From a virus (lineage: Duplodnaviria; Caudoviricetes), in the IMG/VR virus record IMGVR_UViG_3300046170_000323: a DNA stretch of 64,000 bases. One strand, given 5' to 3'. The notes under the pieces were generated by a model. The model was not told the origin of the DNA. It worked only from the letters and a program-made list of their open reading frames with translations, and ran no database searches. Positions 46,547 to 64,000 of the stretch are shown one piece after another; within the stretch, counting starts at the first letter, position 1; every line of letters begins with the position of its first letter. Made by a program: the position numbers and the translations under genes.

Positions 46547-47245
46547 ATGAAAATTTTTGTTGTGAGAATCGGGAACAAATATGGGCCCGAATATGAAGAC
46601 TATATCGAATCGAAACTAGGAGACGACTATGAAGTCGTCTGGATTCGTGAACCTTACGATAATCGTGTAGAACTACAATGGAACAAGATGTCTGTAATGG
46701 ATATGGACATCGATGAACCAGTGTGCGTAATCGATATCGATCTTCTTCTGATTAACGACTACAAAAAGTGTTTTGATTTTCCTGTGGAACGTGGACAGTT
46801 TCTTGCCATGCGAGCGTGGTGGAGAGACACTCTTCATCCAGACTATTCTTTGAATGGTGGTTTCTACAAATACTACCCGAATGATTGTCGGTACATCTAC
46901 GAGAAGTTTATGACAGACGTAGAACACTGGCAGAAATTCTACATTCGTGCAGGCATCACAAGTGGGCCTGTGAACGGTGAACAGTACTTTGTTGAGGATG
47001 CGGTTAAAGAAGAACTGGAATTGATCTATCTACCATCTGCGTGGCAGACACGTTGGTTGAGTCAGAATGATGTACTTCCTGATCTATACACTGAGTGGCA
47101 AAACCGTTTCAATAAGAAATATGAAGCCGTTACTGGTAATGAGTATGCGTGGTTTGGTGACTTTCATGAAGACATCAAGTTAGTACACTTTACGCATGAA
47201 ATGAATCTACCTCACACATGGAAGTATTATAAACAATACACCTAA
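46547..47245 (+). CDS. Glycosyltransferase-like (GT-A) protein
   Basis: VRIGNKYGPEY, WNKM, IDIDLL, NGGF, GEQYFV, KLVHFT. Confidence 0.7.
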   Translation: MKIFVVRIGNKYGPEYEDYIESKLGDDYEVVWIREPYDNRVELQWNKMSVMDMDIDEPVCVIDIDLLLINDYKKCFDFPVERGQFLAMRAWWRDTLHPDYSLNGGFYKYYPNDCRYIYEKFMTDVEHWQKFYIRAGITSGPVNGEQYFVEDAVKEELELIYLPSAWQTRWLSQNDVLPDLYTEWQNRFNKKYEAVTGNEYAWFGDFHEDIKLVHFTHEMNLPHTWKYYKQYT

Positions 47246-47266
47246 ACGGAAGAACCTTCCTATATT

Positions 47267-48682
47267 ATGAAAATTAAAACTGAAAAAGAAAAACCAGATC
47301 TTATCGCTCTGAAAGATCATGATGCTGATGCGTATGCGTCTACTCCTCATGATTACTTCAAGAAGGGTGAACCTGATCTGAACTATATGTTAGATGAAGT
47401 CATCAAAGATAAAGGTGATTTCTTCTGCTCCCAGCCTTGGGTTCATATGTACATGCCAACATATGGATTCCAGCATATTTGTTGTAATACAAGTATGAGT
47501 GTGAAGAAACATATTTCCCAAGCAACCTTTGAAGAACTTTACAACGAACCAGAGTTCACCAAACTTCGTGAAGAGATGGTTGGTGGCCACAAGGATCGTG
47601 AAAGAACTCTGAAGACGTGTGTTAGATGTATTCAAACAGAACATCGTGGGTTTCCTTCCCTGCGAGAGTCCTATAATAGATCTGCAAACAGAAACACCCA
47701 AACAAAAGACGAGATGGGTAAACTCGTTAGTAAAGTCAAAGAAACTGGCGATGGGAATATTGGGCTACCAGAAAAACTTCACACGGTTGAACTCAAAGTG
47801 TGGGGAAACTATTGTAACCTTCAGTGTCTAATGTGTTCTGTAGAGGACTCGTCTTCTGTTGCAGAAGAACAGATGGCACTGGGTGAGATAGATGCAAAGG
47901 GTATTAAAGAACGTGTAACATTGCGTACAGGTATTGAACCACCCTTTACCCCACCTTTGATTCGATATCAAGACAACTACATCGATGAAGATCAGTACTG
48001 GGGCATTATTGATCGTGCAGTACGTATCAAACTTATCGGTGGAGAAACTTTCCTTCAAAAACAAAATATTCAATTGTTAGAACATCTTGTCAAAACAGGC
48101 AAGGCGAAGGATAAAGAACTTATCATCTTCACAAACAACTATGGATATCCACGTATGGAATACGTGCGAGACCTTCTACGCAACTTCAAATCAATTGCGT
48201 ACAAATGTTCTATGGAGTTATGGGGTGAGAAGAATGATTACATTCGTTACCCATCAAAGTGGGATGAAGTACATCGTAACATGAAAATGATGGCGAAGAT
48301 CCCTCAGTTACAAGTGTTGCCAACTTGCACACTAAATCCAATAACAATAGGATATGTACATGAGATCATCGATGGGGCGGCACAGTTCTCAGATGTCATG
48401 CCAAACTTCTCATCTGTATCAAGACCAAAATGGTTTACTGCACACTGTATTCCAGATGATGTCGTGGATTTCTATCTGGACAGATATTATAGTCTACCGT
48501 ACGAGATGATTCACCTTTGCACAAAGGCGATTGAAACTCTGGAACAACGTGATTTCAAAGAAGACAAGTACAAGAAGATGATCAACCATATCACACGTAG
48601 AGATAAACATCGTAATGATAACATCTTGAATTTCTTTCCAGAGTGGAAAAACCATTTCAAGGATCCTTATTATGATAATTGA
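47267..48682 (+). CDS. Radical SAM protein with an N-terminal SPASM/twitch domain
   Basis: C..PWVH......ICC, C..C, CNLQCLMC, GGETF, YIRYPSKW. Confidence 0.9.
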   Translation: MKIKTEKEKPDLIALKDHDADAYASTPHDYFKKGEPDLNYMLDEVIKDKGDFFCSQPWVHMYMPTYGFQHICCNTSMSVKKHISQATFEELYNEPEFTKLREEMVGGHKDRERTLKTCVRCIQTEHRGFPSLRESYNRSANRNTQTKDEMGKLVSKVKETGDGNIGLPEKLHTVELKVWGNYCNLQCLMCSVEDSSSVAEEQMALGEIDAKGIKERVTLRTGIEPPFTPPLIRYQDNYIDEDQYWGIIDRAVRIKLIGGETFLQKQNIQLLEHLVKTGKAKDKELIIFTNNYGYPRMEYVRDLLRNFKSIAYKCSMELWGEKNDYIRYPSKWDEVHRNMKMMAKIPQLQVLPTCTLNPITIGYVHEIIDGAAQFSDVMPNFSSVSRPKWFTAHCIPDDVVDFYLDRYYSLPYEMIHLCTKAIETLEQRDFKEDKYKKMINHITRRDKHRNDNILNFFPEWKNHFKDPYYDN

Positions 48683-49715
48683 TAATCAGTTCAATTTAAA
48701 AAAGATGGACTCTGAGATTACCAATAGATGTAATGCTGCATGTACATTGTGTCCACGTACGGGCACATATCCAGGCGGGTTGGGTAAAGAAGTTTATAAC
48801 TCAGGCCCATTGGATATATCTCTGGATGTGATAGAAGAATGTCTTGGTTGGCCAATTAAGAAGTGGCAGTATTGTGGTAACTACGGTGATCCGATGGCCC
48901 ATCCAAAGGTGTTTGACATTGCAGAGATGGTATCCAAATCTACAGTAGATGCACAACAGTTCGACACAAATGGTTCTATGAGATCCACTCAATTCTGGAA
49001 AGAGTTGGGTGGACTTCCTAATAATATGATAGTGAACTTTGCACTTGATGGACTGAGTGATACAAACCACATCTACAGAACCAACACCAACTTCGAAAAG
49101 ATCATTGAAAATGCAAAAGCATTCATGGCAGGTGGTGGTATTGCACGTTGGATCTTTATTGTTTTCAACCACAATGAACACCAAGTAGAAGAAGCCAGAG
49201 ACATGGCAAGGAAACTTGGGTTTGATAACTTTGCTTTCAAAAAGACTTCTAGACAACTAGAAAAAGGTTCGACAACTGCAAAGAAAGAATATAAGAAGTC
49301 GTCAAAGTCTGAGACAGTCACCAAATCAGTAACTGCAACTAAGAGACCAGAGTTCCAAGCGGATACGATCAAGAGAGGTGTTGTTGAACATGTTGTCTCT
49401 TGTAAGGCACTTGGACAGAAGAAAATGTATGTGACTCCAAAGGGACAATTGATTCCCTGTTGTCACGTTCACCAAGATCTCTTTAAGAACGAATACAATC
49501 CAGAATTCCGTAGTAAGAACGATGAGATGAACTTCACAACTTGGCTGGATGAAAACAACGTCAAGTACGATCTCAATAAGTATACCATATTTGAAGTGAT
49601 GAAGTCTTACAGAGAAAACCTTGACTCGATTGAAGACAGGTGGTTTAGAAGATCTTTACGTTCTTGTAATAAAAAGTGTGGGAGCAATCTAAGAAATGAA
49701 GTCGTTAATTATTGA
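48672..49715 (+). CDS. Radical SAM protein with a C-terminal SPASM/twitch domain
   Basis: CNAACTLC, GNYGDP, TNGS, FALDGL, C...KMYVTPKGQLIPCCH, C..KC. Confidence 0.92.
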   Translation: MIIDNQFNLKKMDSEITNRCNAACTLCPRTGTYPGGLGKEVYNSGPLDISLDVIEECLGWPIKKWQYCGNYGDPMAHPKVFDIAEMVSKSTVDAQQFDTNGSMRSTQFWKELGGLPNNMIVNFALDGLSDTNHIYRTNTNFEKIIENAKAFMAGGGIARWIFIVFNHNEHQVEEARDMARKLGFDNFAFKKTSRQLEKGSTTAKKEYKKSSKSETVTKSVTATKRPEFQADTIKRGVVEHVVSCKALGQKKMYVTPKGQLIPCCHVHQDLFKNEYNPEFRSKNDEMNFTTWLDENNVKYDLNKYTIFEVMKSYRENLDSIEDRWFRRSLRSCNKKCGSNLRNEVVNY

Positions 49716-49809
49716 CTATTATTATAATATCAAAACATATTTTGTGGGTTGGTATTATAAAGTATCTAAGAAAGAAACTGATGATGAATTTATTTACGAG
49801 GATGATTAA
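49696..49809 (+). CDS. Small Tyr-rich peptide (37 aa)
   Basis: MKSLIIDYYYNIKTYFVGWYYKVSKKETDDEFIYEDD*; fills the gap exactly, and its TAA overlaps the next ATG (TAATG). Confidence 0.6.
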   Translation: MKSLIIDYYYNIKTYFVGWYYKVSKKETDDEFIYEDD

Positions 49810-50526
49810 TGAGTCTTTTTGATCTGATCGAAGAAAAACGTAGACACGTTAGAGAATATATGACAAAGGTGCCTCCAAGGGAAATTGTTGAGGACTGTCT
49901 ATGGAAAGCGTGGAAAACATCTCCTTCTAAAAACAACTTTATGGCATATCGTGTGGACGTTTATGGGCCTGATAAACACGAAGAGAAAGAGATTATCTGG
50001 AACCTTGTTCTGAAGAATCACATTCGTGCAGAAGAACGTGCACAACGAGATGGTAGAATAGAGTTTACTCAGAAGGGTGAACCAAATCCTTTCTACGAAC
50101 ATGTAAAACTCAATCCCTATTTGTTTGTTCTCCACAGTAGAGTGGCAAAGAAAGCGAATAGGTTCTACGCACATCAAATAGAAAGAGGTCACTTTGCAGA
50201 TCAGATGTATCCAGATCTAGTCGAAAGACTGGTGGATTCTGTGGCAGTCGACTGTGGACTATTCTTATCTAACCTTACCGCTGCACTTCTAGGAACACGA
50301 CATAGACGTTTCTTACAATTCTTGTTTCCTCAGAGATCCCGCTATATGGCGTTCTGCCGGACTTGATCATGTTGAGTATCGTCCTATCGTTATGATGAGT
50401 GCAGGGTACGCTGCAAAATATAGACACGAGTGCCTCACTGAATGGAACATGGATGGATGGGATGTTAAACCAGACATCGAAGAAGTTATAAAATGGGTGG
50501 GCGAAGATGTTACTAACACTGGGTGA
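49809..50526 (+). CDS. Nitroreductase-fold protein; +1 frameshift near 50300
   Basis: RRHVREY, AWKTSPSKNNF, VAVDCGLF..NL...LLEHDIDVSYNSC, MSAGY. Confidence 0.75.
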
Positions 50527-51319
50527 TAGTTTTACCGTAAAGAGATATGACGGTGATAAACCTTGGTCTGAACAACTTGCAGAGAAACTGGGTATGGAAT
50601 TACTCAATGTATCTCACGAAGGCGAGTCCAACTCTTATATGTTCCGTAATGCGATATGGGCACTGACAACACAAGACGTTGAACTATGTGTCATATCTCT
50701 GACAAACTGGGACAGGTTTGAACTTCCGTACTCAGACTATGGTCTAAAGGGTTCTGGAATGTACGACAGAACAAAAACATTTAAACCAAAAAACTGTTGG
50801 GATGAAGATAATCCCTATTCAAAGCTTTACATTGCATACTATTCTATGTTATACTACGTAGATACAACCTCTTCGTATATCATTGCGATTGACAACTTGT
50901 GTAAGGCAAAGGGTATTCCTCTGATCTTTACACAACCTCTGTTGCCTTTCAACGTGAGAATCAAGGCGGTTAAAACTGGAGAACTGGACTTTTTGTTTTC
51001 AAAGAATATGAATGCTATGGGTGAAGACTACATTGAAAATATTTCGTTGTTCCGTCATGTTGATAAATCACTATTCTGCATGTTCAAACCAACTGCGCAA
51101 ACAATACTCTTTGGTAAGGAAGATGGTATATCTGAAAAGACTTACGACAACATGTTCAGTTTCTTCACAAGGAACCATCCAGAATATGTGATGGGTTATC
51201 ATAATAAATACATTTATAAAGGTGGACAGGCTTTTAGAAAATCATGGGATGGTCATCCTAATTTGAAAGGTCACCAAATGATATCTGATATTGTTTATGA
51301 TCACTATATGAATATGTAA
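50507..51319 (+). CDS. SGNH/GDSL-family protein (acyltransferase/esterase)
   Basis: LGDSFT, GESN, DGHPNLKGH. Confidence 0.8.
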   Translation: MLLTLGDSFTVKRYDGDKPWSEQLAEKLGMELLNVSHEGESNSYMFRNAIWALTTQDVELCVISLTNWDRFELPYSDYGLKGSGMYDRTKTFKPKNCWDEDNPYSKLYIAYYSMLYYVDTTSSYIIAIDNLCKAKGIPLIFTQPLLPFNVRIKAVKTGELDFLFSKNMNAMGEDYIENISLFRHVDKSLFCMFKPTAQTILFGKEDGISEKTYDNMFSFFTRNHPEYVMGYHNKYIYKGGQAFRKSWDGHPNLKGHQMISDIVYDHYMNM

Positions 51320-51330
51320 AGGAGAACTAC

Positions 51331-52035
51331 ATGTCTGTTGCAACAACGTATGCAGATCGAAATCAAACACGTTACTTTGATCAAAACGAAGTTCCTGATA
51401 AAGAACTAATTGAAAAGTGTCTACTCAAGACTCATGAAATTGTCATGTCAAAACAGAACTTGATGCCGTATCAGTGTCATATTTTTGGCCCTGATGATTA
51501 TGATATCAAAAGACGGTTCTATGAACTGGCAAGTACGGTAGAGTACGCTGATCCTGAGAAGAGACAGTTCTACCGAATGGAGAGATTAGAGAAACATGAA
51601 CGTTTCTTTGATAAACAAAAAAGATTCCCGAATGGTAACAGTCAATTGTTTGCGCCGTGGGTTCTTGTATTCTCACCACGTAAACCAAAACCAAACAAAC
51701 TAGTTCAAGACTATCTTGAAGGTCAACACGAGATGAACTATGAGGACATCAAAAACTATGACAGTGGTGCATCCAAGATGGAGATTGGTATGTTCGCTGC
51801 GTTGTTGGGTGGTGTATGTGTAGATGAGGGTCTGAATGTTAGTTACACTGGGTGTATCAACTCACGTGCATTGGTCGAAGAGTTTACATGGTGTAAGTCA
51901 CAACCTGCAGTGTCAGTAAGTATTGGGTATCCCCATACTGAACTTAATGATCGTTACCTTTATAATAAAGTATTCTTCAAAAACAAAGGTGAAGATAAAC
52001 CTAAGCCGGAAGAAATGTTTCACTGGATGGATTAA
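51331..52035 (+). CDS. Nitroreductase-fold protein
   Basis: RNQTRYF, SKQNLMPY, EIGMFA..L...CVDEGLNVSYTGC, SIGY. Confidence 0.72.
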   Translation: MSVATTYADRNQTRYFDQNEVPDKELIEKCLLKTHEIVMSKQNLMPYQCHIFGPDDYDIKRRFYELASTVEYADPEKRQFYRMERLEKHERFFDKQKRFPNGNSQLFAPWVLVFSPRKPKPNKLVQDYLEGQHEMNYEDIKNYDSGASKMEIGMFAALLGGVCVDEGLNVSYTGCINSRALVEEFTWCKSQPAVSVSIGYPHTELNDRYLYNKVFFKNKGEDKPKPEEMFHWMD

Positions 52036-52037
52036 AA

Positions 52038-53375
52038 ATGTTTGATGTGGTAACTGGAATCTCAGAAGGATTCCATGACGCCTGTAAGACTATTATCAAA
52101 GATGGTAAGATTGTCTATGCAGGTCATGCGGAAAGATATTCTCGCATAAAGAATGATAAACACCTACACCCTGATATGCCTGAGACAGAAGGTGTAACTG
52201 TATTCTATGAAAAACCTTTCCTAAAAAATACCAGAAGATTATATGCAGGTCAGTCTTGGAAGAAACGTGGTAAGTATGACTTCACGATTCCCCATCACTG
52301 GTCACATGCGTCTGCAGCTTATTACACTCGTCCCTTTGCTTTAAAGGAACCAGTCTGCGTTGTTATTGATGCGATTGGTGAGTGGGACACTGCATCTATC
52401 TGGTGGAGAAAGAAAAAGGTTTGGAGTATGAAGTACCCTACATCACTGGGACTTTTCTACTCTGCGATAACACGTCACATTGGACTTAAACCAAATGAAG
52501 ACGAGTTTATCACAATGTGTCTCGCAGCGATGGGTGACAGAAACAAATATGACTTCGATCCCTATCTGTACTATCATAAGGGATATGACTTTGGTAAGGG
52601 TCGTAAAGAAGATATCGCCGCATCCGCCCAAAGAATACTTGAAGACGAAATCCTGAAGATCATGGAGAAAGCACGTTCTTACTCTCCTTATCTTTGTTAT
52701 GGTGGTGGGGTTGCACTAAACTGTGTTGCGAACACAAAGATTAAAAGAATGTTTGATGATATGTGGATCTTCCCAAACCCATCAGATGGTGGCAGTTCTT
52801 TGGGTGCAGCGATATCTGCACTAGAACTTGGCCCGTATAGAACGTTGCAGATTGATAACATGTTCCTTGGTCATGAAATAAAAGGCGAATTAGATGTTGC
52901 CAAAGTGGTACAAAATCTGGTACAATATAAAACATGTGGAGTAGCAAATGGTAAAGCAGAATTTGGCCCTCGTGCTCTTGGTAATCGTTCTCTCTTGGCC
53001 GATCCTAGAGTGGACAATATCAAGGACGTGGTTAATAAGGTTAAAAATAGACAAGGTTATAGACCGTTTTCGCCAGCGATACTAGAAGAATATGCTTCTG
53101 AGTATTTTACTGGCCCTATGAATGAGTACATGCAATATGTCTCTCATGCAGAACATGATTACCAAGGGGTGATGCATGTTGATGGTACGTCTAGAGTCCA
53201 AGTCGTTAAAGACGATGGAAGCAATATGCGTAGAGTCCTAGAAGCGTGGTACGAAAAAACTAAATGCCCTATGTTACTAAACACATCACTTAACATAAAG
53301 GGTAAACCTATCGTGAATAATGAACGAGATGCAAAAGAATTTGAAAAGGTAACAAAGGTTCCAGTAGTAACATGA
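52038..53375 (+). CDS. Carbamoyltransferase (NodU/CmcH/TobZ family)
   Basis: GISEGFHDA, HH.SHA, DAIGE, GGVALNC, EFGPRALGNRS, RPFSP, HVDGTSRVQ, LLNTSLN. Confidence 0.95.
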   Translation: MFDVVTGISEGFHDACKTIIKDGKIVYAGHAERYSRIKNDKHLHPDMPETEGVTVFYEKPFLKNTRRLYAGQSWKKRGKYDFTIPHHWSHASAAYYTRPFALKEPVCVVIDAIGEWDTASIWWRKKKVWSMKYPTSLGLFYSAITRHIGLKPNEDEFITMCLAAMGDRNKYDFDPYLYYHKGYDFGKGRKEDIAASAQRILEDEILKIMEKARSYSPYLCYGGGVALNCVANTKIKRMFDDMWIFPNPSDGGSSLGAAISALELGPYRTLQIDNMFLGHEIKGELDVAKVVQNLVQYKTCGVANGKAEFGPRALGNRSLLADPRVDNIKDVVNKVKNRQGYRPFSPAILEEYASEYFTGPMNEYMQYVSHAEHDYQGVMHVDGTSRVQVVKDDGSNMRRVLEAWYEKTKCPMLLNTSLNIKGKPIVNNERDAKEFEKVTKVPVVT

Positions 53376-54160
53376 TGCACATCTTAACACTAAAGGTTGG
53401 GAAAAAATATAGTTCACAATACGTGAATAAATTATACTTGTCTCTTAAAGACAACTCAACCGCTCCTTTTAAGATGTACTGTTACACAGATGATCCAGAA
53501 GGTCTAATAGAAGACGTAGAAGTAATTTACAATCCGTTCATGAAGTTTCTACTTCAGTGGAACAAGGTGGAGTTTCATTCCGCAGAATTTGGTGACATCC
53601 CACAAGGCGAACATTGTCTTATCATGGATATTGATCAGATTGTCATTGGAGACTTCGATCCAATATTAACTCACCAACTTGAAGAAGGTCAGTTCGGATG
53701 TATGCGTAGATGGTGGTCTAGACTACAGGAAGACTGTCCAATCAACGGTGGATTTCAGATGTTCCGTAAGGGAGACACTGATCACATATGGCAGAAATTT
53801 AATGCAGACTCAGATTTTTGGCAACAATATTATCTGAAGAATGGTCTTGCATTCGGTAAAGTAAATGGTGAACAGAACTTTATTCACCAGTTCGCACAAG
53901 AGAACAGGCATTGGTTTCCAAAAGAATGGTTTGGGAAGTATGACTCTGATCAAATGGAAGTGATACAGAAACAATGGATGGATGAGGTCAATACATTTGA
54001 ACCGTTCTATCTTGGCGACGAGTTTGCTGAATCAGTTAAGTTGGTTCACTTCGCCGCCTCATATAATATGATGCATAAACAAAACCTCTATATTGTTAGA
54101 AAGTATTGGGGTGCAGGGGAATTTGATGCTAAGAGTTATTTGCGTACGCACAGGAAGTAA
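53372..54160 (+). CDS. Glycosyltransferase-like (GT-A) protein
   Basis: LKVGKKYSSQYVNKL, WNKV, MDIDQ, INGG, GEQNFI, KLVHF. Confidence 0.7.
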   Translation: MMHILTLKVGKKYSSQYVNKLYLSLKDNSTAPFKMYCYTDDPEGLIEDVEVIYNPFMKFLLQWNKVEFHSAEFGDIPQGEHCLIMDIDQIVIGDFDPILTHQLEEGQFGCMRRWWSRLQEDCPINGGFQMFRKGDTDHIWQKFNADSDFWQQYYLKNGLAFGKVNGEQNFIHQFAQENRHWFPKEWFGKYDSDQMEVIQKQWMDEVNTFEPFYLGDEFAESVKLVHFAASYNMMHKQNLYIVRKYWGAGEFDAKSYLRTHRK

Positions 54161-54704: not shown

Positions 54705-54709
54705 AATAA

Positions 54710-55351: not shown

Positions 55352-55354
55352 ATT

Positions 55355-57014
55355 ATGAAAATTCAGATGGGATCATTCAGTATCCCAAGAAGTTTGCCTT
55401 ACATCCCCTATAGTTCTGCAGTCTTGGAATCTTATGTTAAGAACAGAGACGATCCACCTGCCTGCGAATTTTTAGAACCCATCTACAAATACGATGACAT
55501 ACCAGATCCAGAATGTGAAATTTTGGGTCTGACTTGTTATGTCTGGTCGCAAGATCACGTCGATCAAATCGCCAAGGATCACAAAGAGAAATATCCGAAC
55601 TGTACAATCATGTATGGTGGCCCGAACATTCCTGTATCTCCCACTGAGTGGTTGAAGTACGAGGGAGAACGTCCTTGGGTGGATGTATTTGTCGCAGGTT
55701 CTGGTGAAGAGATCTTTGTGCAGTTGTTGAAAGAGTACCCAAACTTTACTCAGAAGTGGTATAAACTGGAGAAAGATGTAAAGCGTTACACATACGAAAC
55801 TCCAACACCTTACGTGGATGGCACGTTAGATAAGTTCCTCAAACGGAAAGATGAAAAGTTTGTTGCAGTATTAGAAACCAATCGTGGTTGTCCTTTCAAG
55901 TGTGCGTATTGCGACTGGGGAGATGCGACTGGTGGTAAGGTTTCTAAGTATGATGGAGATGTCAACTACAAGACACTCGACTTGATCATGGATTCAGAAG
56001 CGATGACAGGTATTAAGATCATCGATGCAAACTGGGGAATGTACGAACGTGACCTAGACATGACGAAAGTACATGAGAGATCACAAGAGAGAAGATGTGT
56101 TTGTCAGTTTGTGTGGTACTGCAAAGAACAGTATCAAATATGTACCAGAGATTTCTAAGATCTTCTTCCAAGATAACTTTGCTGCAGAGAGTGGTCACTG
56201 GACTCCTCTGAAGTTAGGTATCCAATCTTGGTCAGAAAAGACACTGGCATATAATGATCGTTCAAACATCAAAACATCTCAGTTGGAATATCTACTTAAT
56301 TACTATAAAGACAATGACATTCCTTACCACAGTGAATTGATCCTTGGTCTGCCTGGCGAAACACCAGAGTCGTGGTTGTACACGTTAGACAAAGATCATG
56401 GACACGGTGTGGAGACTCAAGCGTTCCATGCATTAGAAGCGGTTCCTAATATGCCTCTCTTGTTAGACCATAGAGAAGAGTATGAACTGGAGTTGCATTC
56501 CGCATATGCCCTGAGAGAGAATATCTATTCTGTTCATCCTAAGTTTTATCATAGGAATAGAGACTTGGTGTATGATGACTTCAACGAAAACGTTGATAAA
56601 ACAAAGATTGTTAGAAAAGATCTTATCAATTCATGTTTTTCGTTTTCACATGAAGAACTGTTGACCATGTATGACTATACTTGGTGGATGAATACCTTTA
56701 ACAACACGAAACTATTACCAGACATAAAGAAACCGAGCGAAGACATTCTACGGTTCTTTGATAACTTGGACAAGATGCCTTTCTGGAAATCACGAGTCGA
56801 AGAACATCGTGCGCACTGGAGAGAAGCAATGATCGAAGGAAAGATCCTTAGTGCTGGGTCTTTGCGTTACTGGTTCCACACAATGTTTCGTGCAGACGAA
56901 CTAATGTATGTTGGTGAAAACTTTGAACAGGCACAAGACGAAATGGGAAGAAAGTTCCGTCCGTTCAAAAAATCTTTGAGAGTTTACGATTATGAATATA
57001 CCATTCCTCACTAA
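55355..57014 (+). CDS. B12-binding-type radical SAM protein; +1 frameshift near 56068
   Basis: GLTCYVWS, GGPN, GSGEE, ETNRGCPFKCAYCDWG, DANWG, ELILGLPGET. Confidence 0.88.
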
Positions 57015-57708
57015 ACCTTCTGTTAAGTTCTATTCCGAAGAACCTATCATCACAGAAGAGTATCCTATCTACCCTGCGAAACAATATAAACGCAAATGGG
57101 TAAAGAACTGCGCTAGTGCATTTCAAAAGTACCGTAAGGTTACTGATGGACGTGCATCCGTTATCTCTGCAGTCAAATGTCCTGGCATCCGTAATATTAT
57201 GGAAGAGGGATGGATCGCACAGACGTGGCATGATTTCACTATTGAAACAAAAAGTGACGGATATGAAATATTCTATCCAAATGCGATGAAAGACTTTCTC
57301 AAAAGAATTGAATATAAACATCGTCCCATCGAAGTATTCGATACACGAAAAGGCCCAATGAAAGTTCCCACAGGGCGCAATCACAATCACATATTTAAGA
57401 TTCATATTCCGTATTGTTTCGACATTCCAAATGGATATGAGTTGAGAATATTACCAGTTGCATATGATGACAACCCTCAGTTCACTGCATGTGCAGGTTC
57501 TTGTGAAGGGTTCCAGTCAGAATTTAATATTCATATTTTCTGGCACACTCCAGAAGGTCGTGTAACGATTCCCGCTGGAACGCCTCTTTGTCAGATCGTT
57601 CCCATGCGTAAAGAGAAGATAAAGATAGAGACAGGGATTGCAGATGAACCGACACTCAAAAGGTCGAGGAGAAACCTATTACATAGGAGTAATAAGTTTA
57701 CACTATGA
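56992..57708 (+). CDS. Hypothetical beta-rich protein (DUF6065-like)
   Basis: KCPGI, TIPAGTPLCQIVP. Confidence 0.5.
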   Translation: MNIPFLTKPSVKFYSEEPIITEEYPIYPAKQYKRKWVKNCASAFQKYRKVTDGRASVISAVKCPGIRNIMEEGWIAQTWHDFTIETKSDGYEIFYPNAMKDFLKRIEYKHRPIEVFDTRKGPMKVPTGRNHNHIFKIHIPYCFDIPNGYELRILPVAYDDNPQFTACAGSCEGFQSEFNIHIFWHTPEGRVTIPAGTPLCQIVPMRKEKIKIETGIADEPTLKRSRRNLLHRSNKFTL

Positions 57709-58304
57709 GTTATTCGAAATTATCCCTGCACAAAAAACTTGATCTACCTTCTCACACTTTTACAACTACCGAACCAAGTCCAGAAATCGAATACCTGTTT
57801 GACAAGGTTGGTTCGTTGAATGATTACAAAAGAAGATCCCACAACTACGTGGTAGACAAGACTTTAAAAAAACGAACACTGGCGTATTCAGTTACGACAG
57901 TAAACGAGCAACCTGTATTAGGTTCTCTTGCATGGACACGCCCTCTATACAATGGTGTCATAAGACTTTGTACACGATATTGTATAGATCCAGAATGGGC
58001 GCATCTGAACTTTGGAAAGGGTACAGATGGAATGAGACTAGATACGATGGATCATATAATACAACAACTGAAAGTTTGTCAAGAACTAGGACACAATGAC
58101 TTCTTTGTTGGACGTAATGATAAGTCTAGAGGTCGTCGTTCACAAAAAATTGCAAAACAGATAAGTAAGTATACAGGTATAGATTGGAAGGTATCTGACA
58201 CAGAAGTCTTGTGTTCTATGGGTATCGAAGATGACCAATCGTGGCAATATATAATTTATAATGGAAGGAAGGATTTTAATTATGAAAGTGAGTTCAAGAG
58301 GTAA
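57705..58304 (+). CDS. Hypothetical protein, possibly GNAT-like
   Basis: ORF; RLCTRYCIDP segment. Confidence 0.45.
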   Translation: MSYSKLSLHKKLDLPSHTFTTTEPSPEIEYLFDKVGSLNDYKRRSHNYVVDKTLKKRTLAYSVTTVNEQPVLGSLAWTRPLYNGVIRLCTRYCIDPEWAHLNFGKGTDGMRLDTMDHIIQQLKVCQELGHNDFFVGRNDKSRGRRSQKIAKQISKYTGIDWKVSDTEVLCSMGIEDDQSWQYIIYNGRKDFNYESEFKR

Positions 58305-59317
58305 CTACTCAGTATACATCGATGATGTGAACTTTGACGAAATGACAGATGACCAATGGATGGAGATCGGCAAGATCCACATGGCAAATCTGGTTACTAT
58401 TATTCGCAACTGTAATGTAAAACAAACAGAAGCGGCGAAGTATGTGAACAAATGGGGCCCCGTCCCGATACAGTGGGATGTATTATATCTGTTCAAACTA
58501 TCCAGATCTAACTGCAAAAGAAATCATTTCATTGTCACTAAAGGGCGATGAGAGAATTGCAGACTATCATCGTGCGTTGGTAAAAAACCGTTTCAAAACA
58601 AAAGGCCCTGCAGGGACACAACGAGTCACTGACATCAAAGATAAGAAAGGTGACCACACAGGCATCTTCCCTGATGGTGAATTGAAGTGGCACAGTAACG
58701 AGGCAGGGAATCATATCTTTGCGCCTGGCGTTGCGTTGTTGGGTGTACAGAACATGAAGGGATCATCTACTGGGTTCCTTGAAACTGCAACATTCTATGA
58801 AGAGTGTTCTGAGACTTTACGTTCTGAGTTGGACGACATGATCTGTATTCATCGTCACAAGCCTGGCATGTTGCACGTCAAAGACTTGGGTGATCAAGAC
58901 GAAATGATGCGTATTAATATGAACCCTGAGAATGAGACTTACATCCCTATGGTGATTCAGTCGCCTGGCGGTATTCGTGGTATGCATTACTCTATCAATA
59001 CTGTAGACGGTATTGTCGGTATGTCACAGGCAGAAAGTGATAAGTTTTTTGAGATGATCAACGAAGAGTTGATGCGTCACGCATGGGATCACTGGTACGA
59101 GAATGATAACGATTGGTTGTTCTTTGACAACAGTATCACTAATCACCGTAGACTTGGTGAAGTGAAAGACAGACTTGGACTACGAGTCCAACACGGTTAT
59201 GAGAATATTGAGATTGAAAACTACAATCCCTACTTCCAAGAAGAACACGCAAAAATATATACAGAACGTCTAGCGGAGTTAAAAGAATTCAATGAGAACC
59301 ATTTTGGCGCAGGTTAA
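58282..59317 (+). CDS. TauD/TfdA-family 2OG dioxygenase; +1 frameshift near 58477
   Basis: G.FPDGELKWHSNE, T.F, WDH.Y...D.LFFDNS...HRR. Confidence 0.75.
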
Positions 59318-60089
59318 ATCTTTTCATAACATAAAATTACTGAGGGGAGTCCAATATCTTAGTTGGGCTTCCGTTCCGTTTGTCTTGGTCTATCCTTCGA
59401 CATTCAGTCTGCCTGCATTTCTTGTTGGTGTGTTCTTCATTACTATGTTGGGTTCGTCTGCAGGGTTGCACCGATACTTTGGACACAAATCGTTTAAGAC
59501 TGGAAAGTTGAGACACTGGTTTCTTGGTCTTGTAACGACATTGTCCACACAGGGATCTATTCCATTCTGGGTACAATACCATCGTGCACACCACGTCTTT
59601 ACTGACACAGAGGACGATCCGATATCACCCACCTTCGTGGGGTTCTGGAAATCCTTCTTCTCTATTCAAGACATCAACAGTTACAAAGGCATCAGTCCTA
59701 AAAACATTGCAAGGGAGATGAGAGACCCTGCAGTGAAATTTTTTCATGAGTGGTACTGGATTATTATCTTGACATACGTTTTGATTCTTGGTATAATAGA
59801 GCCAACGCTTTTGATAAATGCTTATTTGCTGCCTGTGTTCATGATCAGGTTCACCTTTGGGCTTCAGAATACATTTGGGCATGGTATACCTGTTTTCTTT
59901 GGATACCGTAACCACGAGACGAAAGATAAGAGTTTGAACAGCATCTTTGTAAATATCATCACGTTTGCACTGGGGGAGACACTCCATAACAATCACCATG
60001 CGAACCCTGCGAAATACAACTATCAGGAAAGATGGTATGAACTGGACTTGACAGGATTTGTAATTAAAAGGTTTTTCTCAATTGTATAA
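59292..60089 (+). CDS. Membrane fatty-acid desaturase (paralogue)
   Basis: HRYFGH, HRAHH, GETLHNNHH. Confidence 0.88.
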   Translation: MRTILAQVKSFHNIKLLRGVQYLSWASVPFVLVYPSTFSLPAFLVGVFFITMLGSSAGLHRYFGHKSFKTGKLRHWFLGLVTTLSTQGSIPFWVQYHRAHHVFTDTEDDPISPTFVGFWKSFFSIQDINSYKGISPKNIAREMRDPAVKFFHEWYWIIILTYVLILGIIEPTLLINAYLLPVFMIRFTFGLQNTFGHGIPVFFGYRNHETKDKSLNSIFVNIITFALGETLHNNHHANPAKYNYQERWYELDLTGFVIKRFFSIV

Positions 60090-60642
60090 CATATTTGTTA
60101 CTGGTCATACAAGTGGTATTGGTAAGGCTATTTACGATCATTTAGATAGTCAAGGGTATCATGTAGAAGGTGGTAGTAGATCTAACAATTGGGATATCAC
60201 TAAGGACACAACTGCGAACTATATCAAGGATAAGTTTGACGTTCTGATTAATAATGCATATCATTCAGACGGTCAAGTCAAACTCTTGAAGAACGTATAC
60301 AATGGGTGGCAGAAAAAGAAAAAGACCATTATCAATATCGGTAGTTGGCACAAAGACCATTTATCTGGTCGTCCCTTTTCTTCTCTCAACTACAACGTAG
60401 ATAAGAAAGCATTAGAGACGTACAGTTTTTGGATCGCTGCAAACGATGACACCTGTCGTAGTATGATGTACAACGTTGGGTTTGTAGACACCCCTACGTC
60501 AAGGAAACACATGGACGGTTGGTCTGAAGAAAAACAGAAAGAAGTCTTGACTCGATGTATGGATCCCAAAGTGATTGCAAGAACAATACAATTTATGATA
60601 GAGAATGAATATAATATTAAGGAACTGACACACCATGCCTAA
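60082..60642 (+). CDS. Short-chain dehydrogenase/reductase
   Basis: VTGHTSGIG, LINNA, INIGS, YNVDK. Confidence 0.8.
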   Translation: MYNIFVTGHTSGIGKAIYDHLDSQGYHVEGGSRSNNWDITKDTTANYIKDKFDVLINNAYHSDGQVKLLKNVYNGWQKKKKTIINIGSWHKDHLSGRPFSSLNYNVDKKALETYSFWIAANDDTCRSMMYNVGFVDTPTSRKHMDGWSEEKQKEVLTRCMDPKVIARTIQFMIENEYNIKELTHHA

Positions 60643-61513
60643 ACTAAGATCTGCACCTTTCTTTGTTTGTCCAGAGAGAACATGTGGAACTGTTCTTTTT
60701 CAAGAGATGAAAAAACACGTAGAACAGAAATATAATCTCAAGAGTGGTCACACTGGAGATAACCTGCCCTTCAATGATTTCTTTTTAGACTATAGTACTG
60801 ACTACAGTTTCCACACAAAGAAGTCGGCGGAAGAAGTCAACACTGAGTTACAACTCGTTAGAAAAGGGGATGACATCACTGTCCAACAAGTATTCCCTTG
60901 GTTATTCAGATCGAAAAAAGATCGTGCAATGCATAAGGTAAATGTGTTGAGACAGTTGAAGGAAGATGGTATAGAGTTTAATGTGAAGGCAACTTCCTCT
61001 ATCACATATGTCTTAGAAGAATGTATGGAACTCTATAAAGATAGAACTTGGATCATCACCCTTCGTAGAAATGTATTGGATCATCTGAAGAGTTACGCTA
61101 TCTGGTACGAACACCAGAAACACATGAGTGGTAGAAATGTGGACTGGCAGTTTGTGGAAAGACTGATGAACAGAAAAGATAAGATTCAGATTTCCAATCA
61201 CAGTTGGGATCATGTCGGTATCTTCTTTGAAGAGTTATACAACATCTATGGGTTGCCAGATATGTTAGATGCAAACCACATCGACTATCAGGTTCTTTAC
61301 TATGAGGATATCATAGATGAGAAGACTCGACACAGTTATATAAATCATATGTTCTTGTCTGATGCGTGGAACAAGAATCAACCTTCTAATATTGATAAAA
61401 TCGTACCTAAAAGAATCGAAAAAGATTACGAAAATATTATGAAAGATCCTGAACGATTTAACCGAAGAATAAATAGCATCGTATGGCCAGAAATGAATGG
61501 TGGCCTTAAATAA
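60635..61513 (+). CDS. Sulfotransferase-like protein
   Basis: CPERTCGT (degenerate PSB loop), TLRRNVLDHLKSY, LYYED. Confidence 0.5.
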   Translation: MPKLRSAPFFVCPERTCGTVLFQEMKKHVEQKYNLKSGHTGDNLPFNDFFLDYSTDYSFHTKKSAEEVNTELQLVRKGDDITVQQVFPWLFRSKKDRAMHKVNVLRQLKEDGIEFNVKATSSITYVLEECMELYKDRTWIITLRRNVLDHLKSYAIWYEHQKHMSGRNVDWQFVERLMNRKDKIQISNHSWDHVGIFFEELYNIYGLPDMLDANHIDYQVLYYEDIIDEKTRHSYINHMFLSDAWNKNQPSNIDKIVPKRIEKDYENIMKDPERFNRRINSIVWPEMNGGLK

Positions 61514-61524
61514 AGGGTAAACAC

Positions 61525-62346
61525 ATGGAAATGAAAAAAAGACAACATTTGCCTTTGATGGCAAAACTAAATTTTAAAGTGGATATCGATAAACTACTCA
61601 AAGAGTTCTATGAGTTTGGTTACGATAACTTTGACATGTATAATGGACTGAGTTATGGTAATAACACAGAAGATGGTCTTGTTGTTCGTCGTGTCCTTTT
61701 AGAATACTTCCTTACTGATGAAGAGAAGGAAGCAAGAAAAGATAAACTCGTCGCAGACGGTGGTGAAGCATATAAGATGTTGTGTCTCACAGAGTTCAAT
61801 GGTGATCCAGAGAAACATAACAAAAACCTTGCACAACAGTTAGAGGGTACTAATCTATCACCTCAACAGTTTGCGAGACGTATGGAGAAGATCAGTGATC
61901 CTTCTCATCCAAACTATACACCTATTGCCGACGAGAAACTATACGACAAACGCAACGAGTTCTGTAAAGGATACGTAGACGAAGTACTTAACATGATCGA
62001 AGAGAATATCGGTCACGTTGCACGTACACGTTACGCTGTTCTTAAAGCAGGAGAGGAAATCAAACCTCACCTCGACATTAACACAGACAAAGCGGTTCGT
62101 ATTCATATTCCACTGATCACACATGAGAATGCAGTGATTGGTACTAAGGGTAAAAAACGCACATATGAAATGCATCTGCCTGCAGATGGAGGTGTGTGGT
62201 TCCTAAATCAAGGTTACGAACACTGGGTCAAGAACGATAGTGACGTGGACAGAGTTCACCTCGTCGTTGTTGTCACAGGACAGAAGGGTATCCTTGAGGC
62301 AGATGAACAGTACTGGGATAAAGAAGAAGAACTAGTCGCAGCCTAA
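61525..62346 (+). CDS. Asp/Asn beta-hydroxylase-like 2OG oxygenase
   Basis: RTRYAVL, HLD, RIHIPLITH, HWVKN, RVHLVV. Confidence 0.85.
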   Translation: MEMKKRQHLPLMAKLNFKVDIDKLLKEFYEFGYDNFDMYNGLSYGNNTEDGLVVRRVLLEYFLTDEEKEARKDKLVADGGEAYKMLCLTEFNGDPEKHNKNLAQQLEGTNLSPQQFARRMEKISDPSHPNYTPIADEKLYDKRNEFCKGYVDEVLNMIEENIGHVARTRYAVLKAGEEIKPHLDINTDKAVRIHIPLITHENAVIGTKGKKRTYEMHLPADGGVWFLNQGYEHWVKNDSDVDRVHLVVVVTGQKGILEADEQYWDKEEELVAA

Positions 62347-63221
62347 TGTTATATGTCCTTTGTACAAGCAAACCTTCTGATGGTTTGCTTCATTATAGTT
62401 ATGAATATACACATAAATTAAACGAAGCGGGAATGGAGACAAAGTGTCTCTTTTTCCCTTCCGAAGGTTTTACTAAACAAGATTACATAGATGCGATAAA
62501 CAATAAGTATCGGGTCTATGATCATGTCATGTTCGATGACGAAATTGTGACCGTTTGGGATCACGATGGATGTTTCATTTTGAACAGGTCAATGGTCACC
62601 CTGCCGTATCACAATCGCAACAAGTACACAGAGAAACAACGGTTCATACTCAGTGAGTTGTGCAACAAATTGATCTCGACTTACTCCACCAACCATCCAG
62701 AACAAGCATATCAGGCTGCATTAATGTATTTTAATGCAAATTATGTTGTTGACATTTGTGATAAAGAAGTGTATAATGATGGTGTTGGTGAAAATTTTGA
62801 GAAGCGTATTAACTTTTCTCTGTACAAAGACATTGTCCACGAACCAGTTTGTGAGCACTTGTTCCTTGGTACGAACAGAGAATACTATGATACGGTTCTT
62901 GGACAGTATGAAAATTATGCAGATCCAGCAGTGATTGTATATGAGAATCAGAAGGGACTAGAAGTATTCAGACATGATTTGAAACACATCTACGTTCCAG
63001 TTGACAACCTGTGTGGTCTGTTCGAGAAGTATGTTTACACCAAGACTGCATTTGATCCAGCGCCAAGACTTTTGCAAGAATGCAAGTACTATGGCAAGGA
63101 ACTGATCTACGCAAGAGATCCGTCTATGGTAGACGGTGGTAGTGTCTATTATAAACGTGATCTGAAAGAACCAGATCTTACAGCGGTGTTTAACGCCATT
63201 GATATATTGAAGAGGAAGTAA
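62346..63221 (+). CDS. Hypothetical protein (possibly glycosyltransferase-like)
   Basis: DGLLHYSYE; DPAPRLLQECKYYGK. Confidence 0.5.
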   Translation: MLYVLCTSKPSDGLLHYSYEYTHKLNEAGMETKCLFFPSEGFTKQDYIDAINNKYRVYDHVMFDDEIVTVWDHDGCFILNRSMVTLPYHNRNKYTEKQRFILSELCNKLISTYSTNHPEQAYQAALMYFNANYVVDICDKEVYNDGVGENFEKRINFSLYKDIVHEPVCEHLFLGTNREYYDTVLGQYENYADPAVIVYENQKGLEVFRHDLKHIYVPVDNLCGLFEKYVYTKTAFDPAPRLLQECKYYGKELIYARDPSMVDGGSVYYKRDLKEPDLTAVFNAIDILKRK

Positions 63222-63224
63222 AAA

Positions 63225-64000
63225 ATGAGTATCTCATATGATGCATGGGATCGTGAGTGGAAAGCCAATGAAGTCGCATACTACGGTCTACTTGATAAAG
63301 CAATGCAAAAACCATATGATGGTAGTGTTGAGTTTTTGGAACAGAACATTGAGATGTTCACTGGACGTTACTATGCGGTAGGTGTTGCCAATGCAACTGA
63401 TGCGTTATACTTTGCACTCGTGTCAAAAGGTATTGGACAGGGTGATGAAGTTATTGTAACTAACTTCTCATGGATATCTTCTGGTACTTGCGTAACACGT
63501 TGTGGTGCAACGCCTGTGTTCTGTGACATCGATTTGGATACTTATCACCTATCTTTTGAATCTGTGAAACGTATGGTTTCTCCAAAAACCAAAGCACTTA
63601 TCTGGACACATCTGTTTGGTTCAATGTCAGACACTCGTGAAGTTGAGGAATGGTGTAGAGACAAAGGTATTCTCTTTATAGAAGATGCAGCGCAGTCTGT
63701 TGGTTCATCTTTGGATGGTCGTAAAGCAGGCAATATCGGTGACTGTAGTGTATTCAGTTTCAATTCAAATAAAGTTATCGCAGGTATCGCAGGCGGTGGA
63801 ATGTTCTTGACGAATGATAAAGATCAGGCAAATGCCGTTATGTCTCTACGTAGACACGGTAAAGTCGGTGAGTCATTTGATACTGAACACGGTGTAAACT
63901 CCAAACTGTATGTACCAAACGCAGAGGTTATCGCCCATCGTCTTAAGTTCATGACGGTATGGCAGAGTAAACGTCAAGAGATTGCAAAACTATATGACGC
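63225..64000 (+). CDS. DegT/DnrJ/EryC1/StrS PLP aminotransferase (runs off the window)
   Basis: NATDAL, GDEVIV, GATPVFCDID, IEDAAQS, SFNSNKVI..GGG. Confidence 0.93.
   Translation, partial: MSISYDAWDREWKANEVAYYGLLDKAMQKPYDGSVEFLEQNIEMFTGRYYAVGVANATDALYFALVSKGIGQGDEVIVTNFSWISSGTCVTRCGATPVFCDIDLDTYHLSFESVKRMVSPKTKALIWTHLFGSMSDTREVEEWCRDKGILFIEDAAQSVGSSLDGRKAGNIGDCSVFSFNSNKVIAGIAGGGMFLTNDKDQANAVMSLRRHGKVGESFDTEHGVNSKLYVPNAEVIAHRLKFMTVWQSKRQEIAKLYD

Follow-up and report, generated by a model that had tools for sequence, protein, structure and literature searches.

Layout of the island

The stretch of viral DNA considered here (IMG/VR record IMGVR_UViG_3300046170_000323, 64,000 nt; "the window" refers to this whole stretch) comes from a T4-type marine phage and carries a dense island of genes for glycosyltransferases (GTs), radical S-adenosylmethionine (SAM) enzymes and many other tailoring enzymes (Table 1). 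A preliminary description had placed a tightly packed, co-oriented block of about 20 such genes at 46547-64000 and had read it as an undescribed system, acting as one late pathway that decorates the virion or the host envelope. The packing is as described: 22 plus-strand genes and one open reading frame (ORF) of 37 amino acids (aa) lie between 46.5 and 64 kb, and every gap is of 21 nt or less. Nearly all of the enzyme families named were confirmed, as were the counts of four radical SAM and four nitroreductase-fold genes in the window and the reality of the paralogue pairs (e.g., GT1/GT2), and the family assignments support the view that these are tailoring-type enzymes and not replication genes. 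The proposed bounds had to be moved, as the block begins at ~43.8 kb and continues past position 64000 for ~7.6 kb, to gp59, for a total of ~27 kb. The part beyond the window was read in a second IMG/VR record, G001, which is 99% identical across the whole block, also served as an independent copy, and is itself a fragment (117.8 kb, ~63% of a genome). In a tabulation on G001, 24 consecutive plus-strand genes, three of them outside the 46.5-64 kb span, are separated by gaps of at most 21 nt and overlap at 14 of the 23 junctions. A tRNA/lysin/transfer-messenger RNA (tmRNA) region and small ORFs flank the island on one side and gp59 on the other; at its head, behind a CATAAATA box at 43805, stand a 61-aa ORF and two paralogous genes for proteins of ~320 aa. 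Transmembrane segments were found in only two of the island's proteins, both desaturase-like; the GTs are all soluble. The functions assigned to all genes are drawn from family membership and gene neighbourhood. The firmest assignments are those of the N-twitch radical SAM, the carbamoyltransferase, both desaturase-like proteins, the B12-type radical SAM, TauD, AspH, DegT and GT2 with its two paralogues, whereas the C-twitch radical SAM is assigned less securely. The proteins at 57705, 60635 and 62346 matched nothing in PHROGs, Pfam or NCBIfam.

Core replication genes of the T4 type were found in both the window and G001. The gp43 polymerase, gp44 clamp loader, gp46 and helicase are on the minus strand at 5-24 kb of the window, nearly all genes from ~26 kb onward are on the plus strand, and gp59, gp32, UvsX and gp41 follow directly beyond the island (read in G001). 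The polymerase is ~45% identical to those of the Kyanoviridae, and a nucleotide search of cultured phages with the block gave no match. A permuted tmRNA of the alpha type is present at 43461-43794 (Rfam: alpha_tmRNA, 103 bits; tmRNA_permuted, 115 bits; an ARAGORN scan did not report it), and this tmRNA, along with the relatedness to genes of pelagimyophages, makes an alphaproteobacterial host probable. Few viruses on Earth are as abundant as the marine T4-type phages of SAR11 and of cyanobacteria, and the block itself was present, at 79-94% of sampled words, in 16 seawater or other marine metagenome runs from ~12 studies (X1-X16), so that this phage lineage is common in the ocean. In one metatranscriptome library (X17), contigs match several genes of the block with 95-100% identity (16 of 20 at 99% or above); these contigs are compatible with expression and are no proof of transcription, since DNA carry-over is possible. 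At the point where the strands switch (26477-27887) lies a convergently placed pair of paralogous FkbM-type methyltransferases, one on each strand, with 40% identity.

Table 1. Genes and promoter-like sites of the island within the window
Feature	Position	Strand	Assignment and remarks
Late-promoter-like box CATAAATA	43805..43812	+	~45 nt upstream of the 61-aa ORF
61-aa ORF	43857..44042	+	Head of cassette A
Two tandem paralogous ~320-aa proteins	44058..46010	+	317 and 325 aa in G001
170-aa acidic protein	46030..46542	+	No Pfam match
GT-A glycosyltransferase 1 (GT1)	46514..47245	+	Paralogue of the gene at 53372 (2.5e-29)
N-terminal-twitch (N-twitch) radical SAM	47267..48682	+	NF033640
C-terminal twitch/SPASM-like (C-twitch) radical SAM	48672..49715	+	Pfam Radical_SAM 1.5e-7, 32 bits
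Tyr-rich 37-aa ORF	49696..49809	+	Start and stop overlap adjacent genes
Nitroreductase-fold protein 1	49809..50526	+	31.7 bits (cut-off 23.5); 238 aa in G001
SGNH-like hydrolase or acyltransferase	50507..51319	+	GDS and DxxHP motifs
Nitroreductase-fold protein 2	51331..52035	+	Pfam 0.0064 (below cut-off); paralogue of the gene at 49809
NodU/CmcH-type carbamoyltransferase	52038..53375	+	Carbam_trans_C 1.9e-45, Carbam_trans_N 6.5e-39
GT-A glycosyltransferase 2 (GT2)	53372..54160	+	phrog_1962 1.2e-11
GT-A glycosyltransferase 3 (GT3)	54126..54704	+	phrog_1962 1.8e-4; DxD motif
Membrane-bound acyl desaturase-like di-iron protein 1	54710..55351	+	FA_desaturase 7e-9; first gene of cassette B
Cobalamin-dependent class B radical SAM methyltransferase-like protein	55355..57014	+	552 aa in G001
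phrog_7084 protein	56992..57708	+	phrog_7084 7.7e-36
199-aa protein	57705..58304	+	No match in Pfam, PHROGs or NCBIfam
TauD-family Fe(II)/2-oxoglutarate dioxygenase	58261..59317	+	48 bits; PDB TauD 3e-6; 351 aa in G001
Membrane-bound acyl desaturase-like protein 2	59292..60089	+	FA_desaturase 4e-17
Perfect TTGACA-17-TATAAT site	59769..59797	+	Within the desaturase-2 gene; both hexamers conserved in L014
Short-chain dehydrogenase-like protein (SDR), 186 aa	60082..60642	+	N-terminal matches to adh_short, RmlD and Epimerase, below cut-off
Sulfotransferase-like protein	60635..61513	+	No Pfam match
Aspartyl/asparaginyl beta-hydroxylase-family (AspH) 2-oxoglutarate oxygenase	61525..62346	+	Asp_Arg_Hydrox 5.6e-11; last gene of cassette B
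Tyr-rich 291-aa protein, possibly GT1/GT4-like (GT-B)	62346..63221	+	No Pfam match
Perfect TTGACA-17-TATAAT site	62749..62777	+	~450 nt upstream of the DegT gene
DegT/DnrJ/EryC1 sugar aminotransferase	63225..64000	+	DegT 2.8e-65; runs off the window; 368 aa in G001

A mosaic of recurrent cassettes

Gene neighbourhoods were surveyed around three anchor genes of the island, namely those for the C-twitch radical SAM, the 320-aa protein and the cobalamin (B12)-type radical SAM. Each 80-locus survey comprises the best-scoring loci and is not a random sample; co-occurrence was counted by tblastn (E <= 1e-5) over a range of 10 kb, and since many of the contigs are truncated the counts are lower bounds. 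With the 320-aa anchor, VrlC was found in 58 of the 80 loci, upstream in 57 and always on the same strand, and all enzyme matches were downstream except for one SGNH match. The downstream partners were GT2 (59 loci), GT3 (45), GT1 (41), a methyltransferase-like protein (45), the C-twitch radical SAM (40), carbamoyltransferase (35), SGNH (32), the N-twitch radical SAM (22) and DegT (17); the desaturase appeared in three loci, AspH in two, and TauD, the B12 radical SAM, SDR and sulfotransferase in none. The C-twitch anchor was accompanied by an N-twitch partner in 60 of 80 loci, often in arrays, and by the methyltransferase-like and QueC-like proteins in 22-23, while TauD, AspH, desaturase, DegT, sulfotransferase and nitroreductase occurred in almost no locus. 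The B12 anchor identified two other contigs, L188 and L189, that keep the order desaturase-1, B12 radical SAM, phrog_7084 protein, 199-aa protein, TauD, desaturase-2, SDR and AspH at 52-88% identity; the flanks of the first are unrelated and L189 adjoins a distant version of the genes that stand to the left of this set in the window.

Given that the three anchored surveys yield different partners, and given also the gene order in the Pelagibacter phage Mosig (see below), we conclude that the block is a mosaic of at least three separately inherited cassettes. Cassette A (43.8-54.7 kb) comprises the 61-aa ORF, the two 320-aa proteins, the 170-aa protein, three GT8-like GT-A enzymes, the pair of twitch radical SAMs, the 37-aa peptide with the SGNH-like enzyme, two nitroreductase-fold proteins and a carbamoyltransferase; cassette B (54.7-62.3 kb) the two desaturase-like proteins, the B12 radical SAM, two uncharacterised proteins, TauD, SDR and AspH, with a sulfotransferase-like gene inserted among them in this phage; and cassette C (62.3 kb onward) the GT-B-like protein, DegT, a small radical SAM, a second carbamoyltransferase and the methyltransferase-like protein. 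The 320-aa gene is the anchor gene of cassette A, a module that recurs with constant polarity in association with this phage-specific gene from the baseplate/fibre region. Gene content among related phages is not random: there are syntenic relatives and recurrent neighbourhoods, and the content varies cassette by cassette.

These counts bear directly on the proposal of one coherent late pathway of 17 kb with a single product. That proposal can draw on the unbroken co-orientation with gaps of at most 21 nt, on the adjacency of cassettes A and B in L189, and on the L014 lineage, which keeps the whole gene order except for nitroreductase-1 (54-94% identity per protein; 59% for the 37-aa ORF). L014 is a close relative, for which synteny is expected anyway, and cassette A occurs without B in nearly all of the 80 loci, B occurs without A in L188, and C stands apart from A in Mosig. 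The promoter-like sites speak against it as well. The CATAAATA box, which was found by reading the sequence and by an ATAAATA scan, equals TATAAATA with one mismatch and is a putative promoter; no TATAAATA was found on the plus strand inside the block. Perfect TTGACA-17-TATAAT sites number six in the window against 0.09 expected, at 13938, 17604 and 25713 (minus) and at 43088, 59769 and 62749 (plus); all point with the local genes, and they are probably the early promoters of the phage. Two of the perfect sites lie in coding sequence. Promoter-like sites in general are no more frequent in the block than in shuffled sequence (48 versus 57), so that only the perfect 12/12 sites are significant, and terminator-like matches are weak and lie inside genes. 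As the block has no plus-strand TATAAATA and contains two perfect sigma70-type sites (59769 and 62749), its expression as one late operon is unlikely; by virtue of its CATAAATA box, cassette A may be late at its head, and the downstream parts may be served by early-type promoters. The idea of a single pathway thus seems to us quite improbable. What stands of the original proposal is decoration of virion or envelope, which remains the leading idea; its lateness and its unity do not.

Related islands in other phages

A hypervariable host recognition cluster that follows VrlC in pelagimyophages and cyanomyophages, with GT8-type GTs, lipopolysaccharide (LPS)-type genes and radical SAM cassettes, has been described (PMC7029224, Zaragoza-Solas et al. 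2020). The island resembles it in that both belong to T4-type marine phages and both are variable blocks of GT8-type GTs, sugar-nucleotide enzymes and radical SAMs, and a homologous module stands behind VrlC in the 58 of 80 related contigs already mentioned. It differs in its location, which in this phage is beside gp59/gp32 and not beside VrlC, baseplate or fibre genes. That paper gives gene classes only, without the 320-aa anchor gene, the cassette structure, the twitch pair or the peptide.

The closest cultured counterpart is Pelagibacter phage Mosig EXVC030M (MT647606), in which an island spanning Mosig_00072-00098 stands just behind gp8, VrlC and two 320-aa genes. Its DegT, radical SAM, carbamoyltransferase and methyltransferase genes are in the same order as in G001, with 38-56% identity (DegT 49%, small radical SAM 56%, carbamoyltransferase-2 49%, methyltransferase-like protein 38%). 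Other homologues there are those of the 320-aa proteins (40%), GT2/GT3 (30-43%), a split radical SAM (48%), the nitroreductases, desaturase-1 (79.6%) and the GT-B-like protein (44%). The N-twitch and B12 radical SAMs, the 37-aa peptide, the sulfotransferase-like protein and TauD had no match in the Mosig region (tblastn, E <= 1e-4), although Mosig_00075 is annotated as a TauD-type dioxygenase. The Mosig genes lie on both strands, whereas here all are on the plus strand, and cassette C is separated from A. The Mosig genome announcement does not mention the island.

The T4-like Campylobacter phages CP220 and CPt10 carry 11-12 radical SAM genes and an interchangeable five-gene module (PMC2853527, Timms et al. 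2010). One CP220 protein is weakly related to the C-twitch radical SAM (28% identity over half its length); in contrast to those phages, the island described here has only four or five radical SAMs, set among sugar enzymes. With the same assortment in Mosig and similar islands in these two reports, the island is not a new kind of system, and the earlier description of it as undescribed is not supported. Specific to this window are the detachment from VrlC, cassette B with its sulfotransferase-like insert, the peptide-SGNH pair and two extra nitroreductase-fold genes.

Virus-encoded glycosylation offers a further comparison. The systems of mycobacteriophages and giant viruses involve one or two GTs and proven glycans on capsid or tail proteins; Freeman and colleagues are said to have reported in 2023 that phage-encoded GTs glycosylate mycobacteriophage virions (cited in PMC12801897). 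By analogy, virus-encoded soluble GTs near structural genes are the likeness, and the mechanism is the one that we propose for cassette A. The enzyme set here is far larger, with its radical SAMs, carbamoyltransferase and SGNH-like enzyme. The carbamoyltransferase of phage S-SSM7 was considered as a comparator and dropped, as it is a singleton among core genes, with no island.

Cassette A and the 37-aa ORF

Members of the 320-aa family were found in 233 IMG/VR stretches, and the protein here is 40% identical to Mosig_00097. A fold model built with 30 homologues is of good quality (predicted local distance difference test (pLDDT) score 88, predicted TM-score 0.81), and a Foldseek search with it against PDB and BFVD gave nothing at E <= 0.001. 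A likeness to the MABP beta-prism was rejected, since the best VIA-align Z of 7.2 (range 5-7) is at background level. From its position only, we infer that the 320-aa protein may be an acceptor or a part of the fibres. In 21 of the 80 anchored loci the 320-aa gene has the 170-aa gene as its immediate downstream neighbour on the same strand, and homologues of the 61-aa ORF occur in four of the 80 loci anchored on the 320-aa family and in L189.

All three GTs of the cassette are of the GT-A type. GT1 aligns with the GT8-like family. The model of GT2 (pLDDT 87) gave 334 Foldseek matches, with GlyE, glycogenin and LgtC at the top (~1e-8 to 1e-9, more exactly 4e-9 to 2e-8; TM-score 0.54-0.62), and D86 and D88 of its DxD motif are invariant; by its model, GT2 has the fold of a retaining GT8-like GT-A glycosyltransferase. 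GT3 is 43% identical to Mosig_00094.

The two radical SAMs at 47267 and 48672 had been described as SPASM proteins. Both are indeed radical SAMs; the full seven-Cys SPASM motif is present in neither, and both are of the twitch type. The N-twitch protein matches NF033640 at 243.9 bits (cut-off 170) over model positions 2-397 of 398, with an N-terminal CX11GX4CC and CX2C and a core CX3CX2C; in cultured phages this family is almost absent, with three weak matches. The C-twitch protein, whose score is barely above the Pfam cut-off, belongs to a family with at least 587 related stretches in IMG/VR; its CX3CX2C, CX13GX4CC and CX3C motifs are invariant in 30 homologues, which gives five conserved C-terminal Cys as against the seven of SPASM. 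Sequence searches of PDB with either protein gave no match. Elsewhere in the window, at 27936-28978, a radical SAM core (207 aa) and a Cys-rich twitch-like tail (139 aa) are encoded by separate adjacent ORFs. Because the same 27936/28559 split is present in G001 and in Mosig, this is a naturally split enzyme. Tandem arrays of radical SAM genes were encountered in the surveys, with ~14 such genes in L007 (IMGVR_UViG_2823573081_000015) and at least 15 in L105, a 271-kb ENA contig; N-twitch, C-twitch and short types all occur in them, accompanied by genes for QueC-like, methyltransferase-like, AspH-like and ThiF-like proteins, and the order of the array families recurs in many IMG/VR contigs.

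The Tyr-rich 37-aa ORF raises the question of whether the product is a hypermodified peptide or protein, in the manner of ribosomally made peptides with post-translational modifications (RiPPs) or proteusins, with the 37-aa peptide or the 320-aa proteins as substrate and the GTs adding sugars on top. The ORF is kept in five lineages (L014, L098/L099, L100, L010 and G001), in which the radical SAM is 53-99% identical to that of the window; it has an invariant C-terminal [FY]IYEDD, an N-terminal part that varies along with its length, and a place beside the radical SAM pair. The residues would be modified by the twitch and B12 radical SAMs, AspH, TauD, the nitroreductase-fold proteins and the sulfotransferase. 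All of these families have peptide-modifying members, and GlyE, which the GT2 model matches best, elongates the O-glycans of a serine-rich adhesin. Yet at 80 more distant radical SAM loci there is no Tyr-rich or aromatic small ORF of the character of the 37-aa peptide, so that the co-occurrence of precursor and maturase across the family that is expected of a RiPP is confined to five close lineages. The ORF directly precedes the SGNH gene in four lineages and directly follows the C-twitch radical SAM in four, i.e., it tracks SGNH at least as closely as the radical SAM, and the suggestion that the peptide is a general substrate was not upheld. No RiPP recognition element (RRE)/PqqD, leader protease or exporter was matched in Pfam/NCBIfam scans, which remote or novel recognition domains could escape, and the CX3CX2C of the C-twitch protein begins at residue 20 and leaves no room for an N-terminal recognition domain. 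Taken together, we find a peptide-modifying role of this kind unlikely.

The SGNH-like protein has no direct match in PHROGs, Pfam or NCBIfam; two of its paralogues are encoded in G001, and a weak GDSL match was obtained for one of these. A prediction of its complex with the 37-aa peptide scored 0.02, a result to which we give no weight either way.

Cassette B

Both desaturase-like proteins have three His boxes (HX4H, HX2HH and HX2HH) and transmembrane segments. Desaturase-1 is 79.6% identical to Mosig_00080, against 25-56% for the other island genes shared with Mosig, and has either been exchanged recently or is under unusually strong constraint. The B12 radical SAM matches TokK (5.8e-37, residues 13-376) and CysS (3e-26), and the intact G001 protein matches the B12-binding domain at 5e-5 (below cut-off) and Radical_SAM at 30.9 bits. 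In the class B architecture, from which a methyltransferase role is predicted, an N-terminal B12-binding domain precedes a CX3CX2C-bearing radical SAM core, as it does here; the protein's score against the KedN5-family model is 134 bits, for a cut-off of 700. TokK and CysS have the same two domains, and the difference lies in the context, which here is a phage cassette with desaturases and 2-oxoglutarate oxygenases.

As regards the remaining members, phrog_7084 homologues occur in the Syn9 and S-RIM44 cyanophages, the 199-aa protein is conserved in place in L014, L188 and L189, and AspH is 83-86% identical in L188 and L189. The SDR match covers only the N-terminal Rossmann part, and this gene is conserved in cassette B of L188 and L189. 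For the protein at 60635, clusters that a language model finds alike carry Sulfotransfer_1/3, which is a lead only, and motifs of the type that binds 3'-phosphoadenosine 5'-phosphosulfate were recognised by eye.

Frame breaks in the window record

Alignment of the window with G001 revealed seven small indels in 18.7 kb. Three of them are 1-nt insertions in the window, at ~50291, ~56065 and ~58458, none of which is in G001; the first shortens the 238-aa nitroreductase-1 to 185 aa, the second breaks the 552-aa B12 radical SAM into pieces of 267 and 313 aa, and the third breaks the 351-aa TauD into pieces of 96 and 279 aa. Seawater contigs from X3 and X5 and the RNA-library run X17, which belong to different studies, are free of all three insertions, and DNA run X1 is free of the first two; thus the nitroreductase-1 insertion is absent from X1, X3, X5 and X17, and that in the B12 radical SAM from four independent runs. 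Since the insertions are missing from G001 and from independent seawater assemblies, the natural population carries intact copies of the three genes, and the breaks are a feature of the window assembly. The two 320-aa genes at 44-46 kb are likewise frame-broken in the window and intact in G001. Single-base indels that break frames relative to G001 lie at 45246-45545 as well as at the three sites above, and together they point to systematic insertion errors in the window genome record. A 96-aa ORF at 58261, which had been a candidate for a Tyr-rich peptide, was rejected because it is the N-terminus of the frame-split TauD.

Cassette C and the genes beyond the window

Clusters resembling the protein at 62346 are named GT family 1 (0.98, a lead only), and the protein is 44% identical to Mosig_00083. 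In G001 the rest of the DegT gene is followed by genes for a 270-aa radical SAM, the second carbamoyltransferase and the methyltransferase-like protein and, farther on, by heme oxygenase, bilin reductase, two SGNH paralogues and a QueC-like PP-loop protein before gp59. DegT is 49% identical to Mosig_00087, with the same gene order downstream, and its nearest matches are transaminases of sugars and inososes.

The first of these in PDB, glutamine-scyllo-inositol transaminase (2.4e-57), invites a reading in which the island makes a secondary metabolite like an aminoglycoside or aminocyclitol, with DegT as an inosose transaminase, a BtrN-like radical SAM, carbamoyltransferase, B12 C-methylase and GTs. 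The small radical SAM does match BtrN and viperin weakly, and cyanophage S-SCSM2R has adjacent DegT-family (AHBA_syn) and radical SAM genes (ORF305/306) that were termed "antibiotic synthesis genes" (PMC12801897), a likeness by description only. Nucleotide-sugar transaminases match DegT almost equally (QdtB and WbpE at ~1e-46), the radical SAM matches cover only the cluster-binding N-terminus, and no cyclitol synthase, resistance gene or exporter was seen, so that such a product is very unlikely. A viperin or QueE identity for the small radical SAM, with weak matches over the cluster-binding region only, was likewise not used.

The QueC-like protein (L003:7350-8060 in G001), with SGGxDS and a C-terminal CxxCxxC, is the last gene of the island before gp59, and members of its family were also present at 32 of 80 radical SAM loci. 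T4-type phages glycosylate their DNA, and a QueC-like protein at the end of an island with GTs and radical SAMs might suggest hypermodification of DNA. No TGT/DpdA, ThyA-type hydroxymethylase or QueD (PF01702, PF00303, PF01242) was found in G001, i.e., in ~63% of the genome, nor any other queuosine/7-deazaguanine gene; and the gene with which the enzymes are associated is a protein-coding anchor of the baseplate/fibre region, not a gene of nucleotide metabolism. DNA as the target is the least probable of the readings weighed here, and a very remote one.

The heme oxygenase and ferredoxin-dependent bilin reductase (L003:4295-5504 in G001) lie ~3.4 kb past the window in the same co-oriented island. 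This pair, in a phage whose tmRNA points to a non-cyanobacterial host, resembles the hemO-pcyX cassettes of uncultured marine phages (PMC11480375).

What the island may make

Our preferred interpretation, which we consider reasonably probable, is that the island is a variant of the accessory islands of the host recognition cluster in marine T4-like phages, a composite of at least three cassettes that builds a decorated glycan. Soluble cytoplasmic enzymes would make an amino sugar (DegT), retaining GT8-like enzymes would transfer sugars, and the glycan would then be carbamoylated, given or stripped of acyl groups, methylated and altered by radical chemistry. The likeliest acceptor would be the phage's own 320-aa host-recognition-region protein or its fibres, with a host envelope glycan nearly as likely; cassette B would more probably act on acyl or lipid substrates.

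Several observations weigh against this interpretation. The island in this phage adjoins neither VrlC nor baseplate genes, and no DUF4815 (VrlC) was found in the 117.8 kb of G001, which is a fragment, so that VrlC may be elsewhere in the genome. The model of the 320-aa protein has no virion fold recognisable by Foldseek or VIA-align. Peptides and proteins are also among the substrates of AspH, TauD, the B12 and twitch types of radical SAM and the nitroreductase-fold proteins, so that protein modification would be a possible alternative. The two internal consensus early-type promoters fit enzymes that are made before virion proteins, cassettes A and B may still cooperate, as they stand side by side in L189, and the assignments of SGNH, sulfotransferase, SDR, the GT-B-like protein and nitroreductase-2 are weak.

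Some of the same evidence would suit a remodelling of the host envelope, in which LPS, capsule sugars or lipids are altered with receptor masking or a block to superinfection as the outcome. The AspH family includes LpxO and OlsC, the GT8-like enzymes include the LPS/lipooligosaccharide enzyme LgtC, and cassette B has two membrane acyl desaturase-like enzymes; there are early-type promoters inside the block and a UDP-glucose dehydrogenase-like gene elsewhere in the window, and envelope remodelling has been proposed for pelagimyophage GTs (PMC7029224). On the other side, the GTs are all soluble, and there is a strict linkage between the enzymes and a phage-specific 320-aa gene that follows VrlC. 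Among all of the island genes, Pfam scans also detected no initiating phosphoglycosyltransferase, flippase (Wzx), polymerase (Wzy), ligase or exporter (ABC-type included), which excludes a self-contained O-antigen pathway; modification of host glycan intermediates may occur. We hold envelope remodelling to be a possibility of clearly lesser standing that still deserves serious attention.

Implications for marine T4-type phages

The largest variable regions of marine T4-type phages are crowded with genes for sugar enzymes and radical SAMs. What is new here is that such a block resolves into three recurrent cassettes, and that in dozens of contigs one of these is tied to a phage-specific 320-aa gene that follows VrlC, always with the same polarity. 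It is conceivable, and we offer this tentatively, that widespread marine phages build a heavily tailored glycan, or a glycan together with residue modifications, on the 320-aa host-recognition protein by means of a dedicated set from cassette A, namely the GT8-like transferases, the twitch radical SAM pair, the carbamoyltransferase, the SGNH-like enzyme and the small conserved peptide. To our knowledge, virion glycoproteins tailored by radical SAMs are not known in phage biology. The question becomes testable through the cultured pair of Mosig and Pelagibacter ubique HTCC1062, which carries homologues of many of the island genes, and the vague label of "LPS-like auxiliary genes" gives way to a defined question, namely whether it is the 320-aa protein or the host envelope that is glycosylated and tailored.

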